Both the position numbers and the translations under genes were made by a program. From Escherichia coli (lineage in GTDB: Bacteria > Pseudomonadota > Gammaproteobacteria > Enterobacterales > Enterobacteriaceae): a DNA stretch of 64,000 nucleotides. Positions 794 to 47,359 of this stretch are shown here, one piece after another; position 1 is the stretch's first letter, and each line of letters starts with the position of its first letter. Location of the stretch: assembly GCF_044647545.1 (NCBI RefSeq), contig NZ_CP172818.1, one strand, 5' to 3'. The notes under the pieces are model-generated. The model was not told the origin of the DNA and did no database searches. It saw only the letters and a list, made by a program, of their open reading frames with translations.

Positions 794-2862
<2,069 letters not shown>

Positions 2863-3662: not shown

Positions 3663-5984
3663 ATGATGAATGATTCGTTCTGCCGCATTATTGCGGGTGA
3701 AATTCAGGCGCGCCCGGAACAGGTTGACGCTGCCGTTCGCCTGCTTGACGAAGGGAATACCGTGCCGTTTATCGCACGTTATCGTAAGGAAATCACCGGC
3801 GGTCTGGATGACACGCAGCTGCGTAATCTGGAAACGCGTCTGAGCTATCTGCGCGAGCTGGAAGAGAGACGTCAGGCGATCCTCAAGTCCATTTCCGAGC
3901 AAGGCAAACTCACCGATGATCTGGCGAATGCCATCAACGCCACCCTAAGCAAAACCGAACTCGAAGACCTCTACCTGCCCTACAAACCTAAACGCCGCAC
4001 CCGTGGGCAAATCGCCATTGAAGCAGGGCTTGAGCCGTTGGCCGATCTGCTGTGGAGCGATCCGTCACACACGCCAGAAGTCGCCGCTGCACAATATATT
4101 GATGCCGATAAAGGCGTGGCAGATACCAAAGCCGCGCTGGACGGCGCGCGCTATATCCTGATGGAACGGTTTGCCGAAGATGCCGCGCTGCTGGCGAAAG
4201 TGCGTGATTATCTGTGGAAGAACGCGCATTTGGTCTCAACCGTGGTGAATGGTAAAGAAGAGGAAGGGGCGAAATTCCGCGACTATTTCAATCATCACGA
4301 ACCGCTGTCCACGGTGCCTTCTCACCGCGCGCTGGCGATGTTCCGTGGTCGTAACGAAGGCATACTTCAGCTTTCGCTGAATGCCGATCCGCAGTTCGAA
4401 GAGCCGCCAAAAGAGAGCTATTGCGAGCAAATCATCATGGATCACCTTGGCCTGCGCCTGAACAATGCCCCGGCGGATAGCTGGCGCAAAGGTGTGGTGA
4501 GCTGGACGTGGCGCATCAAGGTGTTGATGCATCTGGAAACTGAACTGATGGGCACCGTGCGCGAACGCGCGGAAGATGAAGCAATCAACGTCTTTGCCCG
4601 TAACCTGCACGATCTGCTGATGGCGGCCCCAGCCGGACTGCGTGCAACGATGGGCCTCGATCCGGGTCTGCGTACCGGGGTAAAAGTAGCGGTGGTCGAT
4701 GCAACTGGCAAACTGGTGGCGACCGATACCATTTATCCACATACCGGACAAGCCGCAAAAGCAGCGATGACCGTTGCTGCCCTGTGTGAAAAGCATAACG
4801 TTGAACTGGTGGCGATCGGCAACGGTACAGCTTCCCGCGAAACCGAGCGTTTCTATCTCGACGTGCAGAAGCAGTTCCCGAAAGTGACCGCGCAGAAAGT
4901 GATCGTCAGCGAAGCTGGCGCGTCGGTTTACTCGGCTTCCGAGCTGGCAGCACAGGAGTTCCCGGATCTCGACGTTTCGCTGCGTGGCGCGGTGTCTATC
5001 GCCCGCCGTTTGCAGGATCCGCTGGCGGAGCTGGTGAAAATCGATCCGAAATCTATCGGCGTAGGTCAGTATCAGCATGACGTCAGCCAGACGCAACTGG
5101 CCCGCAAACTGGACGCAGTAGTAGAAGACTGCGTAAACGCCGTTGGCGTCGATCTCAACACCGCTTCTGTTCCGCTGTTAACTCGCGTGGCGGGCCTGAC
5201 GCGCATGATGGCGCAAAACATCGTTGCCTGGCGCGATGAGAACGGTCAGTTCCAGAACCGTCAGCAACTGCTGAAAGTGAGCCGTCTGGGGCCGAAAGCC
5301 TTCGAGCAGTGCGCGGGCTTCTTGCGCATTAACCATGGTGATAACCCGCTGGACGCGTCTACCGTCCACCCGGAAGCCTATCCGGTGGTGGAACGCATTC
5401 TGGCAGCAACACAGCAGGCACTGAAAGATCTGATGGGTAACAGCAGCGAGTTGCGTAACCTGAAAGCGTCTGACTTTACTGATGAAAAATTCGGTGTACC
5501 GACGGTAACTGACATCATCAAAGAGCTGGAAAAACCGGGTCGCGATCCGCGTCCGGAATTTAAAACCGCTCAGTTTGCCGATGGCGTCGAAACGATGAAC
5601 GACCTGCAACCGGGTATGATCCTCGAAGGTGCGGTGACCAACGTCACCAACTTTGGCGCGTTTGTCGATATTGGCGTGCATCAGGACGGCCTGGTTCACA
5701 TCTCTTCATTGTCGAACAAGTTTGTGGAAGATCCGCATACCGTGGTGAAAGCGGGCGATATTGTGAAGGTGAAAGTGCTGGAAGTGGATCTTCAGCGCAA
5801 ACGTATCTCCCTGACTATGCGTCTGGACGAGCAGCCTGGCGAAACCAACGCTCGTCGCGGCGGCGGTAATGAACGTCCGCAGAACAACCGCCCGGCAGCC
5901 AAACCGCGTGGGCGTGAAGCGCAGCCTGCCGGTAATAGCGCGATGATGGATGCGCTGGCGGCGGCAATGGGCAAAAAACGTTAA
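3663..5984 (+). CDS. tex: Tex-like transcription accessory protein with C-terminal S1 domain
   Basis: 773-aa [46 protein letters not shown]...; YqgF/HhH region and C-terminal S1 domain; known as yhgF in E. coli. Confidence 0.93.
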
Positions 5985-6649: not shown

Positions 6650-6665
6650 TACGGTGATAACAACA

Positions 6666-8987
6666 ATGAAAAAATTAACCATTGGCTTAATTGGTAATCC
6701 AAATTCTGGCAAGACAACCTTATTTAACCAGCTCACTGGCGCACGTCAGCGTGTAGGTAACTGGGCTGGCGTTACCGTCGAACGTAAAGAAGGGCAATTC
6801 TCCACCACCGATCATCAGGTCACCCTGGTGGACCTGCCTGGCACCTATTCTCTGACCACCATCTCATCGCAGACCTCGCTCGATGAGCAAATCGCCTGTC
6901 ACTATATTCTGAGTGGCGACGCCGACCTGCTGATTAACGTGGTGGATGCGTCTAACCTTGAGCGTAACCTGTACCTGACGCTGCAACTGCTGGAACTCGG
7001 CATTCCCTGCATCGTGGCACTGAACATGCTCGACATTGCCGAGAAGCAAAATATTCGCATTGAAATTGATGCTCTGTCGGCGCGTCTTGGCTGCCCGGTG
7101 ATCCCGCTGGTTTCAACCCGTGGTCGCGGTATTGAAGCGCTCAAGCTGGCGATTGATCGCTATAAAGCTAACGAAAATGTGGAACTGGTGCATTACGCTC
7201 AGCCGCTGCTCAACGAAGCAGATTCACTGGCAAAAGTGATGCCTTCCGACATCCCGCTGAAACAACGTCGCTGGCTGGGCCTGCAAATGCTGGAAGGCGA
7301 TATCTACAGCCGCGCCTACGCCGGTGAAGCGTCGCAGCATCTGGATGCCGCCCTCGCCCGTCTGTGTAATGAGATGGACGATCCGGCGCTGCACATTGCC
7401 GATGCGCGTTACCAGTGCATTGCTGCCATCTGTGATGTGGTAAGCAACACCCTGACGGCAGAACCCAGCCGTTTCACCACTGCGGTAGATAAAATCGTGC
7501 TCAACCGTTTCCTCGGTCTGCCGATTTTCCTCTTTGTGATGTACCTGATGTTCTTGCTGGCTATCAACATCGGCGGGGCGTTACAGCCGCTGTTTGACGT
7601 CGGCTCCGTGGCGCTGTTTGTGCATGGTATTCAGTGGATTGGCTACACGCTCCACTTCCCGGACTGGCTGACTATCTTCCTCGCCCAGGGCCTGGGTGGC
7701 GGTATTAACACCGTGCTGCCACTGGTGCCGCAGATCGGCATGATGTACCTGTTCCTCTCCTTCCTCGAGGACTCCGGATATATGGCGCGTGCGGCGTTTG
7801 TGATGGACCGTCTGATGCAGGCGCTGGGCTTGCCGGGGAAATCCTTTGTACCGCTGATCGTTGGTTTCGGTTGTAACGTACCGTCGGTAATGGGCGCACG
7901 TACGCTTGATGCACCGCGTGAACGTCTGATGACCATCATGATGGCACCGTTTATGTCCTGCGGCGCGCGTCTGGCTATCTTCGCCGTATTCGCGGCTGCT
8001 TTCTTCGGGCAGAACGGTGCGCTGGCGGTCTTCTCGCTGTATATGCTGGGTATCGTGATGGCGGTGCTAACTGGCCTGATGCTCAAGTACACCATCATGC
8101 GCGGTGAAGCGACGCCGTTTGTCATGGAGCTGCCGGTCTACCATGTACCACACGTTAAAAGCCTGATTATCCAGACCTGGCAGCGTCTGAAAGGCTTCGT
8201 TCTGCGTGCTGGTAAAGTGATCATCATCGTCAGCATTTTCCTGAGCGCTTTCAACAGCTTCTCGCTGAGCGGGAAAATCGTCGATAACATCAACGACTCG
8301 GCGCTGGCGTCCGTCAGCCGGGTGATCACCCCGGTCTTCAAGCCAATTGGTGTGCATGAAGATAACTGGCAGGCAACGGTTGGCCTGTTTACAGGTGCCA
8401 TGGCGAAAGAAGTGGTAGTGGGTACGCTCAACACCCTCTACACCGCAGAAAATATTCAGGACGAAGAGTTCAATCCGGCAGAGTTTAACCTCGGTGAAGA
8501 GCTGTTCAGTGCGGTAGATGAAACCTGGCAGAGCCTGAAAGACACCTTCAGCCTTAGCGTACTGATGAACCCCATTGAAGCCAGCAAAGGCGACGGCGAA
8601 ATGGGTACCGGGGCGATGGGCGTGATGGATCAGAAATTCGGTAGCGCAGCAGCAGCTTACAGCTACCTGATTTTCGTCCTGCTGTATGTACCATGTATCT
8701 CGGTGATGGGAGCCATCGCCCGTGAATCAAGCCGTGGCTGGATGGGCTTCTCCATCCTGTGGGGGCTGAATATCGCTTACTCGCTGGCAACATTGTTCTA
8801 TCAGGTCGCCAGCTACAGTCAGCACCCAACTTACAGCCTGGTGTGCATTCTGGCGGTTATCCTGTTTAACATTGTGGTTATCGGTTTGCTGCGTCGCGCG
8901 CGTAGCCGGGTGGATATCGAACTGCTGGCAACCCGCAAGTCGGTAAGCAGTTGCTGCGCAGCCAGCACCACCGGTGATTGCCATTAA
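6666..8987 (+). CDS. feoB: ferrous iron transporter FeoB (GTPase plus permease)
   Basis: [25 protein letters not shown] (G1 motif GNPNSGKT), long polytopic C-terminal region; start trimmed to MKKLTIG (773 aa). Confidence 0.95.
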
Positions 8988-22037: not shown

Positions 22038-23057
<1,020 letters not shown>

Positions 23058-24284
23058 TTATCCTTTTACACACACCACCTGACGCAGGGTGTAGATAACT
23101 TCCACCAGATCGCTTTGTGCCGCCATCACCGCGTCGATATCTTTATACGCCATCGGGATTTCGTCGATCACTTCGGCATCTTTACGGCATTCCACATGCG
23201 CGGTGGCACGAATTTGATCTTCCACGCTGAACAGTTTTTTCGCTTTAGTACGGCTCATTACCCGCCCGGCACCGTGGCTGCACGAACAGAACGACTCTAC
23301 ATTTCCCAGCCCACGGACGATAAAGCTTTTCGCTCCCATCGACCCTGGAATAATTCCATATTGACCAGCACGCGCAGACACCGCGCCTTTACGCGTCACG
23401 TAGATCTCTTCACCAAAGTGCTGTTCTTTTTGCACATAGTTGTGGTGACAGTTGATCTCTTCCATCGCCAGCGTTTGCGGCTGCCTTACCGTTTTCTGCG
23501 TAATGCTCTGCAACGCCGTTACCACGTTTTCCATCATCGCATCGCGGTTAAGGCTGGCAAAAAGCTGCGCCCAGGCCACCGCTTTCAGGTAATCGTCAAA
23601 GTATTCCGTACCTTCCATAAAGTACGCCAGATCACGCGACGGCAACGTTTCAAGTGTTTCCTGCATCTCTTTTTGCGCCAGATCGATAAAATAAGTTCCG
23701 ATGGCGTTACCAATTCCGCGTGAACCGGAGTGCAGCATAATCCACACCTGGTCCGACTCATCAAGGCAGATTTCAATAAAGTGGTTACCCGTTCCCAGCG
23801 TTCCCAGATGTTTATAGTTGTTAGTGTTAAGGAAACGTGGATATTTTTGCGTTAACCACTGATAACCGGCTTCCAGCTCAGCCCATTTCGCATCGACGTT
23901 AACAGGCGGATTTTCCCATGCGCCTTTATCACGTTTACAACGTCCGGTAGTACGCCCGTGCGGCACGGCAGCTTCAATCGCCTGACGCAGCTCCGCCAGG
24001 TTTTCCGGCAGGTCTGCCGCCGTTAACGCGGTACGCAGCGCGTTCATTCCACAACCGATATCTACCCCCACCGCCGCCGGAATAATCGCCCCTTTGGTTG
24101 GGATCACGCTACCAATGGTGGAACCTTTACCCAGATGTACATCAGGCATTACCGCAATATGTTTGAAAATAAACGGCATCTTCGCCGTATTTATCAGTTG
24201 CTGACGCGCATCGTCTTCTACCGGTACGCCTTTGGTCCACATTTTTACCGGGACATTTTCAGTGGTCAGTAATTCGTAATTCAT
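23058..24284 (-). CDS. rtcB: RNA ligase RtcB
   Basis: 408-aa ORF MNYELLTTENVPVKMWTKGVPVEDDARQQLINTAKMPFIFKHIAVMPDVHLGKG.... Confidence 0.95.
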   Translation of the reverse strand: MNYELLTTENVPVKMWTKGVPVEDDARQQLINTAKMPFIFKHIAVMPDVHLGKGSTIGSVIPTKGAIIPAAVGVDIGCGMNALRTALTAADLPENLAELRQAIEAAVPHGRTTGRCKRDKGAWENPPVNVDAKWAELEAGYQWLTQKYPRFLNTNNYKHLGTLGTGNHFIEICLDESDQVWIMLHSGSRGIGNAIGTYFIDLAQKEMQETLETLPSRDLAYFMEGTEYFDDYLKAVAWAQLFASLNRDAMMENVVTALQSITQKTVRQPQTLAMEEINCHHNYVQKEQHFGEEIYVTRKGAVSARAGQYGIIPGSMGAKSFIVRGLGNVESFCSCSHGAGRVMSRTKAKKLFSVEDQIRATAHVECRKDAEVIDEIPMAYKDIDAVMAAQSDLVEVIYTLRQVVCVKG

Positions 24285-24321
24285 TTTGTTTTTCTCTTTT
24301 CGTTGTTTGCTGTCCTGATAA

Positions 24322-24338
24322 TTGCAACCGTCGTGCCA
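24322..24338 (-). promoter_or_regulatory. sigma54 (-24/-12) promoter of rtcBA
   Basis: Minus strand reads TGGCACGacggTTGCA, an exact match to TGGCAC-N5-TTGC, about 40 bp upstream of rtcB; the divergent gene encodes the sigma54 activator RtcR. Confidence 0.65.
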
Positions 24339-24471
24339 GAAAATTAAATAAGCAGCTTAATTTTTTAATTCATTGTTTTTAATAGATTAAATCTTTACGT
24401 CCGTAAACGGAGATTTCCCGCAAAGCCAATTCGCCGATAATGAAATATCGTCTTTTATAAGGATATCTAAG

Positions 24472-26070
24472 ATGCGTAAAACAGTGGCTTTTGGCTTTGT
24501 CGGCACCGTACTGGATTATGCCGGGCGCGGCAGTCAGCGCTGGTCGAAATGGCGTCCGTCACTCTGTCTATGCCAGCAAGAATCGTTAGTCATCAATCGA
24601 CTGGAATTGTTGCACGACGCCCGCTCACGCTCGCTGTTTGAAACGCTTAAACGCGATATCGCCAATGTTTCGCCAGAAACAAAAGTGGTGGGCGTTGAGA
24701 TTGAACTGCATAACCCGTGGGATTTCGAAGAGGTTTACGCCTGCCTGCATGATTTCGCCCGTGGTTACGCGTTCCAGCCAGAAAAAGAAGACTATTTAAT
24801 TCACATCACCACCGGTACCCACGTCGCGCAGATTTGCTGGTTTCTGCTGGCAGAAGCGCGTTATCTACCCGCCCGGTTGATACAATCTTCACCACCGCGC
24901 AAAAAAGAACAACCGCGCGGCGCAGGTGAAGTGACGATTATCGATCTCGATTTAAGCCGTTATAACGCCATCGCCAGCCGCTTTGCCGAGGAACGCCAGC
25001 AAACCCTCGATTTCCTCAAATCCGGCATTGCCACGCGTAACGCCCACTTCAACCGCATGATTGAGCAGATCGAAAAAGTGGCGATCAAATCCCGCGCACC
25101 GATCCTGCTCAACGGCCCAACCGGTGCGGGAAAGTCGTTTCTGGCACGACGCATCTTCGAGTTAAAACAGGCGCGGCATCAGTTTAGCGGCGCGTTTGTG
25201 GAGGTGAACTGTGCCACTCTGCGCGGCGATACCGCCATGTCAGCGCTGTTTGGTCATGTGAAAGGCGCGTTTACCGGGGCGCGGGAGTCGCGGGAAGGAT
25301 TATTACGCAGCGCCAACGGCGGGATGTTATTTCTTGATGAGATTGGCGAACTGGGCGCAGACGAACAGGCAATGCTGCTGAAAGCCATTGAAGAGAAAAC
25401 CTTTTACCCGTTTGGCAGCGATCGCCAGGTGAGTAGCGATTTTCAGCTTATCGCCGGAACGGTGCGCGATTTGCGCCAACTGGTTGTCGAAGGCAAATTT
25501 CGCGAAGACCTGTACGCACGGATTAATCTCTGGACTTTCGCTCTGCCGGGGCTACGCCAGCGCCAGGAAGATATTGAACCTAACCTGGATTATGAAGTGG
25601 AGCGCCACGCCTCACTTACCGGCGACAGCGTGCGTTTTAACACCGAAGCGCGGCGCGCCTGGCTGGCCTTTGCAACATCATCTCAGGCGGCATGGCGCGG
25701 TAACTTTCGCGAGCTTTCTGCCAGCGTCACGCGAATGGCAACCTTTGCCACTAGCGGACGCATCACTCTGGAAGTGGTTGAAGATGAGATAAACCGTCTG
25801 CGCTATAACTGGCAGGAGAGCCGCCCTTCCGTGCTTACACAGCTACTGGGCGCTGAAGCGGAAAACATCGACCTCTTTGATCGACTGCAACTGGAACACG
25901 TTATCGCTATCTGCCGTCAGGCAAAGTCGCTTTCCGCTGCCGGACGCCAGCTTTTTGACGTTTCGCGCCAAGGGAAAGCCAGCGTCAACGACGCGGATCG
26001 GCTACGCAAATACCTGGCGCGTTTTAATCTGACGTGGGAAGCCGTGCAGGATCAGCACAGCTCCAGTTGA
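24472..26070 (+). CDS. rtcR: sigma54-dependent transcriptional activator RtcR
   Basis: 532-aa [33 protein letters not shown]...; AAA+ motifs GPTGAGKS and GAFTGA. Confidence 0.93.
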
Positions 26071-29787: not shown

Positions 29788-29886
29788 GCCTGATGCGCTA
29801 CGCTTATCAGGCCTACGTGGTTTATGCAATATATTGAATTTGCATGATTTTGTAGACAAAATAAGGCGTTCACGCAGCATCCGGCA
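29788..29886. repeat. REP/BIME element (two inverted REP units) downstream of glpD
   Basis: gcctgatgcgctacgcttatcaggcctac and, in opposite orientation, gtagacaaaataaggcgttcacgcagcatccggcat. Confidence 0.75.
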
Positions 29887-32805: not shown

Positions 32806-34239
32806 CTATTTCAAGCGATAGTAAAGCTCACGGTACGACTTCGCCGCGACCTGCCAGCTAAAATCCATTGCCATAGCCTGACGTTGCACAAACCGCCACA
32901 GTGAAGGACGGGACCACAGTACAAAAGCACGTCGAATAGCCCGTAATAGCGACCAGGCATTACTATCTTCAAAGACAAACCCACTGGCGACGCCATCTGC
33001 AAGGTTCTCAAGAGAACAGTCAGAAACCGTATCAGCAAGCCCACCGGTGCGCCGCACTAACGGCAGCGTACCGTACTTCAATCCATAAAGTTGCGTTAAG
33101 CCGCACGGTTCAAAACGGCTGGGCACCAGAATGACGTCCGCGCCGCCCATAATGCGATGCGAAAATGCTTCGTGATAGCCAATCTGAACGCCCACCTGGC
33201 CGGGGTATTCCGCTGCCGCCGCAAGGAAACCTTCCTGCAGCACCGGATCGCCCGCGCCGAGTAGCGCCAGTTGCCCGCCCTGCTCCAGAAGACCCGGTAA
33301 GGCCTCCAGCACCAGGTCGAGACCTTTCTGGCTGGTCAGACGGCTCACCACTGCAAAAAGCGGCACTTTATCGTCAACCTTAAGCCCCATTGCGATTTGT
33401 AACTGGCGCTTATTTTCCGCTTTATCTTCCAACGTATCGCGGGTGTAACGCGAGGCCAACAGTAAGTCCGTCTCTGGACTCCAGATTTTCTCGTCCACGC
33501 CGTTCAGTACGCCGGAAAGACGCCCTTCACGGTGACGCTGTTGCAACAGACCTTCCATACCGTAGGCAAACTGCGGTTCGGTGATCTCGCGAGCGTAGGT
33601 TGGACTGACTGCCGTAATGTGATCGGCATAGTACAGACCGGCCTTCAGAAAAGAGATTTGTCCGTTGAATTCCAGCCCATGAATATTAAAGAATGACCAT
33701 GGCAATTGGATGTCATTCATGTGATGTGCATAAAACATGCCTTGATAGGCCAGGTTGTGCACAGTAAACACCGACTTCGCCGGACGCCCGCGCGCCGCCA
33801 GATACGCAGGCGCAAGGCCTGCATGCCAGTCGTGCGCATGCACCACATCAGGACGCCAGAATGGGTCAAGCCCACTGGCCATTTCTGCCCCAACCCACCC
33901 CAGCAGCGCAAAACGCAATACGTTGTCGGTATAGGCAAATAAGTTGGTATCGTGATACGGGCTTCCCGGACGATCATAGAGATGCGGCGCGTCAATCAGG
34001 TATATGCCAACCCCGTTGTAATGACCGAACAACAGCGTGATATGTCCGGCGAAGGTATCACGACGGGATACTACCTGCGCATCGGTCACGCCACGGCGAA
34101 TATCGGGAAATGCAGGCAACAGTACGCGAGCGTCAACGCCGTCTGCGATTTGTGCTGCGGGTAATGCCCCAATAACATCAGCCAGACCGCCGGTTTTAAG
34201 CAGCGGGAACATCTCTGAACATACATGTAAAACCTGCAT
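32806..34239 (-). CDS. glgA: glycogen synthase (ADP-glucose dependent)
   Basis: 477-aa [45 protein letters not shown]... (KTGGL motif). Confidence 0.95.
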
Positions 34240-47147: not shown

Positions 47148-47269
47148 GATTTCGTCCTTTTTAAGGGGGTTATTTACACCTTAGCGCAAAGCGGACGTGG
47201 TTCCTACTGGAGTGCGCATAACGAACACAAGCACTTCCCGTGGATAATTTGAAAACGAAAGATCAAAAA

Positions 47270-47359
47270 AAAAGCCAGCACCCGGCTGGCTAAGTAATAC
47301 TGGAAGCAATGTGAGCAATGTCGTGCTTTCAGGTTCTCCGCGAGGGTCTTCCTGATCGC
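47270..47359 (-). ncRNA. ryhB: RyhB small RNA (Fur-repressed, iron-sparing response)
   Basis: Minus strand reads GCGATCAGGAAGACCCTCGCGGAGAACCTGAAAGCACGACATTGCTCACATTGCTTCCAGTATTACTTAGCCAGCCGGGTGCTGGCTTTT, matching the 90-nt RyhB sequence from memory, with its terminator hairpin and U-run; located between yhhX and yhhY as in K-12. Confidence 0.88.

Follow-up and report, generated by a model that had tools for sequence, protein, structure and literature searches.

The Rtc system of E. coli has been linked to the ability of cells to survive ribosome-targeting antibiotics and tRNA-cleaving toxins. In another E. coli system, pspF/pspABCDE, the activator gene and the sigma-54 promoter that it controls point in opposite directions, and the region between them contains both the activator sites and an IHF site; these activator sites overlap the activator's own promoter, which leads to negative autoregulation, and PspF, which is without a sensory domain, is controlled by PspA. 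RtcR, unlike PspF, carries a CARF domain. For rtcBA itself, Genschik et al. in 1998 reportedly determined where transcription starts and identified the TGGCA and TTGCA elements.

Later work found that rtcBA needs a sigma-54 promoter and the divergently encoded RtcR, and that an upstream activating sequence (UAS) and an IHF site exist for it (PMC9650030; PMC5175333), although the IHF site and the UAS are named without sequence, supplements included (PMC9650030). The promoter has also been detected in a ChIP-seq study of K-12 as site OS35, which lies on the minus strand, is assigned to the gene rtcB, has a fold-above-threshold value of 17 and is listed as 'experimentally Confirmed in EcoCyc' (PMC4591121). 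The rsr-yrlBA-rtcBA promoter of Salmonella Typhimurium (rsrp, STM3521) is likewise an RtcR-dependent sigma-54 promoter that is divergent from rtcR; its core, TGGCACGCTGGTTGCAAT, is found upstream of rsr, is bound by sigma-54 and gives sigma-54-dependent expression.

We analysed a 64-kb stretch of E. coli DNA (the window) in which the gene order malT-rtcA-rtcB / rtcR-glpR-glpG-glpE-glpD is that of the E. coli chromosome; rpoN lies outside it. In this locus, rtcA, rtcB and rtcR are all full length, and rtcR is divergent from rtcBA with a gap of 187 bp (Table 1). RtcA scores 772.9 bits against the NF003247 equivalog (cut-off 333), and its catalytic His is residue 309 of the ORF, or residue 308 when counted from the annotated start. 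That start is probably the second ATG, giving a protein of 338 aa, and the literature mutant H308A, in which the catalytic His of RtcA is replaced, is numbered from the second ATG as well. RtcB covers the whole of the Pfam profile PF01139 (444.6 bits) and has its catalytic His337. RtcR matches the NF038308 equivalog over residues 1-527 with 842.6 bits (cut-off 650); the N-terminal CARF-type RtcR domain (PF06956) spans residues 2-185 and the AAA+ sigma-54 interaction domain (PF00158, 170.9 bits) spans residues 187-354, with Walker A at 215, GAFTGA at 265 and Walker B at 285. The initial annotation had described the divergent arrangement of rtcR and rtcBA as intact, and these full-length genes, with their catalytic and motif residues in place, bear that out.

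Table 1. Features of the rtc locus in the window and, in the last six rows, of loci in other genomes (coordinates of their own sequences).
Feature	Position	Strand	Basis
rtcA, RNA 3'-phosphate cyclase, ORF of 339 aa	22038-23057	-	ORF list, NF003247, residue check
rtcB, RNA ligase, 408 aa	23058-24284	-	ORF list, Pfam, residue check
rtcB/rtcR intergenic region, 187 bp	24285-24471		
Putative transcription start C, 28-nt 5' UTR	24312	-	Motif-centre distance and fit to ApC primer
Sigma-54 -24/-12 core TGGCACGACGGTTGCA, 16-mer	24323-24338	-	Both strands read; pattern and matrix match
IHF-consensus-like site AAACAATGAATTA, -66 to -54	24366-24378	-	One mismatch to WATCAANNNNTTR
Candidate RtcR enhancer (UAS), TTAGATATCCTTATAA, TTATAAAAGACGATAT, GATATTTCATTATC, -158 to -124	24436-24470	-	Conserved dyads
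rtcR, sigma-54 activator, 532 aa	24472-26070	+	ORF list, NF038308, Pfam, motifs
IS1 case, FDAARGOS_497 (L001)	4215-4912		
IS1 case, LB858871 (L009)			
Riflebacteria tRNA-like element (L074)	1563-1629		
Riflebacteria tRNA-like element (L098)	7289-7361		
Riflebacteria tRNA-like element (L110)	2325-2391		
Riflebacteria tRNA-like element (L122)	7820-7892		

Read on the minus strand, the end of the intergenic region next to rtcB is ...TTAATTTTC TGGCACGACGGTTGCA ATTATCAGGACAGCAAACAACGAAAAGAGAAAAACAAA ATG, where ATG is the rtcB start and TGGCACGACGGTTGCA is the sigma-54 core. A sigma-54 motif had been placed on this strand between 24300 and 24345, 'about 40 bp' upstream of rtcB, and we found that the core has the same orientation as rtcB and that 38 nt separate its 3' end, and 40 nt its -12 GC, from the rtcB ATG; this spacing makes the earlier distance right. 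The coordinates of the flanking ORFs put the core in the intergenic region and therefore outside coding sequence. When the dinucleotides were re-inspected, GG and GC were both present, exactly 10 bp apart within TGGCAC-N5-TTGC, and relative to C24312 they occupy -25/-24 and -13/-12, respectively. TGGCACGACGGTTGCA is an exact match to TGGCACG-N4-TTGCW and the sole match to it in the window. The sequence TGGCACGNNNNTTGCW occurs once in the 64 kb when both strands are counted, where 0.07 occurrences are expected and 7 of 100 shuffles yield one.

We also scanned the window for RpoN sites with a position weight matrix made from 28 Salmonella intergenic sites (PMC3844500), from which the rtc/rsr site was excluded. 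The core is the best match in the window, with a score of 19.8 bits (training sites, 16.5-23.6) as compared to 12.7 bits for the runner-up. The number of sites with a score of at least 19.8 bits that is expected by chance per window is 0.015 under an independent-base model and 0.04 under a first-order Markov model.

The window 17-mer at 24323-24339 is identical to CTGGCACGACGGTTGCA, the sequence of OS35, and the predicted K-12 start lies 28 bp from rtcB (PMC4591121), a geometry that is equal in the window (24312 to 24284). The K-12 rtcBA promoter (rtcBp) has the divergent rtcR and the malT/glpR flanks that we see here. Across the intergenic region, the window is ~96% identical to K-12 (TG1); there are a few substitutions and one 1-bp indel, in the interval between the promoter and rtcR, and none of the differences falls within the -24/-12 core. 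The Salmonella core is equal to the window 18-mer at 16 of 18 positions; however, the Salmonella operon starts with rsr and two Y RNAs, whereas in E. coli rtcB comes directly after the promoter.

This analysis shows the motif and where it lies, its identity to the K-12 site, the intact genes and protein motifs and the conserved arrangement; that sigma-54 occupies the promoter, that RtcR is required and that a UAS and an IHF site exist is taken from the K-12 literature. Taken together, these data make it all but certain that the core is the rtcBA sigma-54 (RpoN) promoter, intact and under the control of RtcR. The initial annotation had called rtcBA sigma-54-dependent and activated by RtcR, which agrees with the identity to OS35 and with published work (PMC9650030; PMC5175333). 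It had also called this known biology, and rightly so: the core is the confirmed K-12 rtcB promoter, and nothing is changed in what is known about that promoter. The word 'exact', which had been applied to the promoter as a whole, holds for the 16-nt core only, and an exact core is not the same as a strong promoter, because native PrtcBA has been described as 'very weak in vitro' (PMC9650030).

Placing the start 19 bp downstream of the motif centre at 24331, as was done for K-12 (PMC4591121), gives C24312, 28 bp from the ATG at 24284. Transcription from native PrtcBA is primed with the dinucleotide ApC at -1/+1 (PMC9650030), and the window bases A24313 and C24312 fit this primer. We therefore infer a start at C24312 in the window strain, a placement that rests on secondary sources.

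The weakness of the native promoter in vitro would also fit a reading in which rtcBA is transcribed mainly from another promoter, of the sigma-70 type, and the sigma-54 site plays a minor part, and RtcR-independent induction of rtcBA, for which alternative promoters were suggested, has been reported in Salmonella (PMC9650030). We regard this reading as highly improbable in view of a consensus scan in which a sigma-70-like -35/-10 pair was absent from both strands of 24200-24560, of the RtcR dependence of the 175-nt PrtcBA reporter (PMC5175333) and of the Salmonella rtc promoter region, which its authors picked because it has no predicted sigma-70 promoters. That scan, which covered terminators too, found nothing in the rtcB/rtcR intergenic region.

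The sigma-54 core is conserved within the species and, with its divergent arrangement, beyond it. We sampled 8 E. coli genomes at 93-100% intergenic identity, and 7 of them carry the 16-mer unchanged; in strain CE2050, TGGTACG is present in place of TGGCACG, a C to T change at -23 (aligned to window position 24335). Elsewhere, rtcR loci were gathered by protein alone (the RtcR CARF domain; plasmids and chromids), so that the promoter was not presupposed, which gave 14 loci from about 14 genera of alpha-, beta- and gammaproteobacteria, with 6.5 kb scanned per locus. In 12 of the 14 (Ralstonia, Burkholderia, two Rhizobium, Methylosinus, Shinella, Tistrella, Xanthomonas, a Citrobacter plasmid, Novosphingobium, Photobacterium and Pseudomonas amygdali), the best matrix match in the 6.5 kb is on the strand opposite rtcR and lies 129-160 bp upstream of the rtcR start, as compared to 134 bp in the window. 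At the remaining two rtcR loci, those of Bosea and Variovorax, a divergent promoter at the usual distance was not found. We also scanned species genomes for the exact pattern TGGCACGNNGGTTGCAAT, a scan that is biased because the promoter itself is required. Among the 120 matches listed, most are unrelated sigma-54 promoters or chance and 6 adjoin rtcR; TGGCACG-NN-GGTTGCAAT adjoins rtcR in E. albertii, Chitinimonas and four Riflebacteria among those listed.

Inert sigma-54 sites are numerous in E. coli and lie inside many genes (PMC4591121), and an equally good site arises by chance in 1.5-4% of 64-kb windows; however, that the core is such a chance or transcriptionally inert site and does not drive rtcBA is the least credible reading, very unlikely indeed because the core sits in a 187-bp intergenic region, has the right orientation, adjoins the gene of a dedicated sigma-54 activator, recurs in the same arrangement at 12 of 14 independently found rtcR loci across genera and is identical to an experimentally confirmed K-12 promoter (PMC4591121).

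In the four Riflebacteria, this sigma-54 promoter is again divergent from rtcR (54% identical). About 90 nt downstream of the promoter, their conserved non-coding sequence contains a tRNA-like element (Rfam tRNA, 54-58 bits), probably a YrlA-type Y RNA like those of the Salmonella operon. In Ralstonia (L130), the divergent promoter precedes two hypothetical proteins and then a nucleotidyltransferase, and on the Citrobacter plasmid (L139) a slipin-family protein is followed by a nucleotidyltransferase-domain protein; at both loci the annotated genes are not rtcB. RtcR may control other cargo in some genomes.

Control of rtcBA is that of a standard enhancer-dependent promoter, and the steps specific to the window strain are set out here on the strength of its sequence identity with K-12. 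Sigma-54 polymerase would sit on the GG (-24) and GC (-12) elements of the core as a closed complex that does not initiate unaided. RtcR, encoded 134 bp away, would most likely bind an enhancer beside its own start codon, and an IHF-type bend in the AT-rich spacer would bring it to the polymerase. An RNA-damage signal would then relieve the RtcR CARF domain; in Salmonella, the signal for RtcR is tRNA fragments with cyclic phosphate ends (PMC7790460), and in E. coli, RtcA and RtcB bind the CARF domain (PMC9650030). The AAA+ domain, driven by ATP and acting via its GAFTGA loop, would open the complex, and transcription would proceed from about C24312 through rtcB and then rtcA.

Regions aligned on the -24 element share two more conserved features. 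Of 17 rtcR loci, 12 have an IHF-like site (at most one mismatch to WATCAANNNNTTR) whose start is 30-75 nt upstream of the -24 T, as compared to 1.4 in shuffles, and 10 of these 12 sites start at 40-44 nt from the -24 T and share one orientation. The spacer between the candidate enhancer and the promoter has a G+C content of 31% as compared to 53% for the whole window. The candidate enhancer abuts the rtcR start codon. At 14 of 16 loci, the dyad TTATC-N6-KATAA is found no more than 15 nt from the rtcR start, as compared to 0.8 in shuffles, a circular statistic that overstates the case because these same sequences had supplied the pattern. The dyad is exact in Burkholderia, two Rhizobium, Shinella, Tistrella and Citrobacter, and extra half-sites follow it ~10 nt apart; the dyads are weakest in E. 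coli itself (two mismatches each) and poor in the Riflebacteria loci. The published RtcR-dependent PrtcBA reporter spans 175 nt upstream of rtcB (PMC5175333), which means that it extends to 24459 and contains most of the candidate enhancer.

Based on these patterns, we tentatively propose, as something that could well turn out otherwise, that RtcR binds a conserved TTATC-N6-KATAA array at its own start codon (overlapping a possible rtcR -10 in E. coli), that this one enhancer both activates rtcBA, via an IHF bend at a fixed distance of ~40 nt from the -24 element, and autoregulates rtcR, and that alpha-, beta- and gammaproteobacteria have this three-part layout in common. For the window strain, the positions given for the enhancer and the IHF site are predictions from the sequence. 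The literature searched gave no sequence-level account of the RtcR enhancer, which is not to claim that none exists, and the enhancer proposal is the only item here that is possibly new; the added value of the analysis is limited to this testable, sequence-level proposal for the places where RtcR and IHF bind.

Within the candidate enhancer, GATAAT at 24436-24441 (+) is a possible rtcR -10, and AAGGA is found 7 nt before the rtcR ATG. A -35 element that would go with GATAAT was not found, and the consensus scan gave no sigma-70 promoter for rtcR. The position of the possible -10 inside the candidate enhancer suggests that rtcR may be autoregulated, and we take this as a suggestion only. Another candidate for the enhancer, the palindrome TTTACGgaCGTAAA (24392-24405), was rejected, as E. 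albertii does not conserve its right arm and nothing similar recurs in other genera. A search of the intergenic region for repeats found only AT-rich inverted repeats that have no clear meaning.

The window strain appears, judging from its genes and promoter, to keep an intact and inducible Rtc RNA-repair module, which is not trivial for E. coli given the deletions found in other strains. About 587 of 5426 complete E. coli genomes (about one in nine) match just ~20% of rtcA-rtcB-rtcR (window 22038-26070) and carry a deletion that takes out the promoter, rtcB and the larger part of rtcA and rtcR. In strain 1444 (L144), what this deletion leaves between malT and glpR is the 3' end of rtcA joined to that of rtcR. 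Strains whose intergenic region is 100% identical to that of the window have IS1 in rtcB, and in another strain an IS1-mediated rearrangement parts the promoter from rtcA. IS1 is absent from the window copy of rtcB.

Two further sigma-54 sites and two small RNAs were seen elsewhere in the window. AGGCATGTTTTATGCACA at 33725-33742 (-) lies inside glgA (32806-34239), scores 11.6 bits on the matrix and points, like glgA, towards glgP; its K-12 counterpart is the strong intragenic ChIP-seq site IS43 in glgA (fold-above-threshold 49), and Salmonella STM3535 is bound too. TGGCACTGAACATGCTCG at 7015-7032 (+), inside feoB (6654-8987), scores 10.3 bits and corresponds to the weak intragenic K-12 ChIP-seq site IS42. 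The small RNAs are Rfam matches at the gathering score: RyhB at 47266-47330 (-), with 83.1 bits, and ES036/CssrF at 29809-29851 (-), with 43.6 bits.
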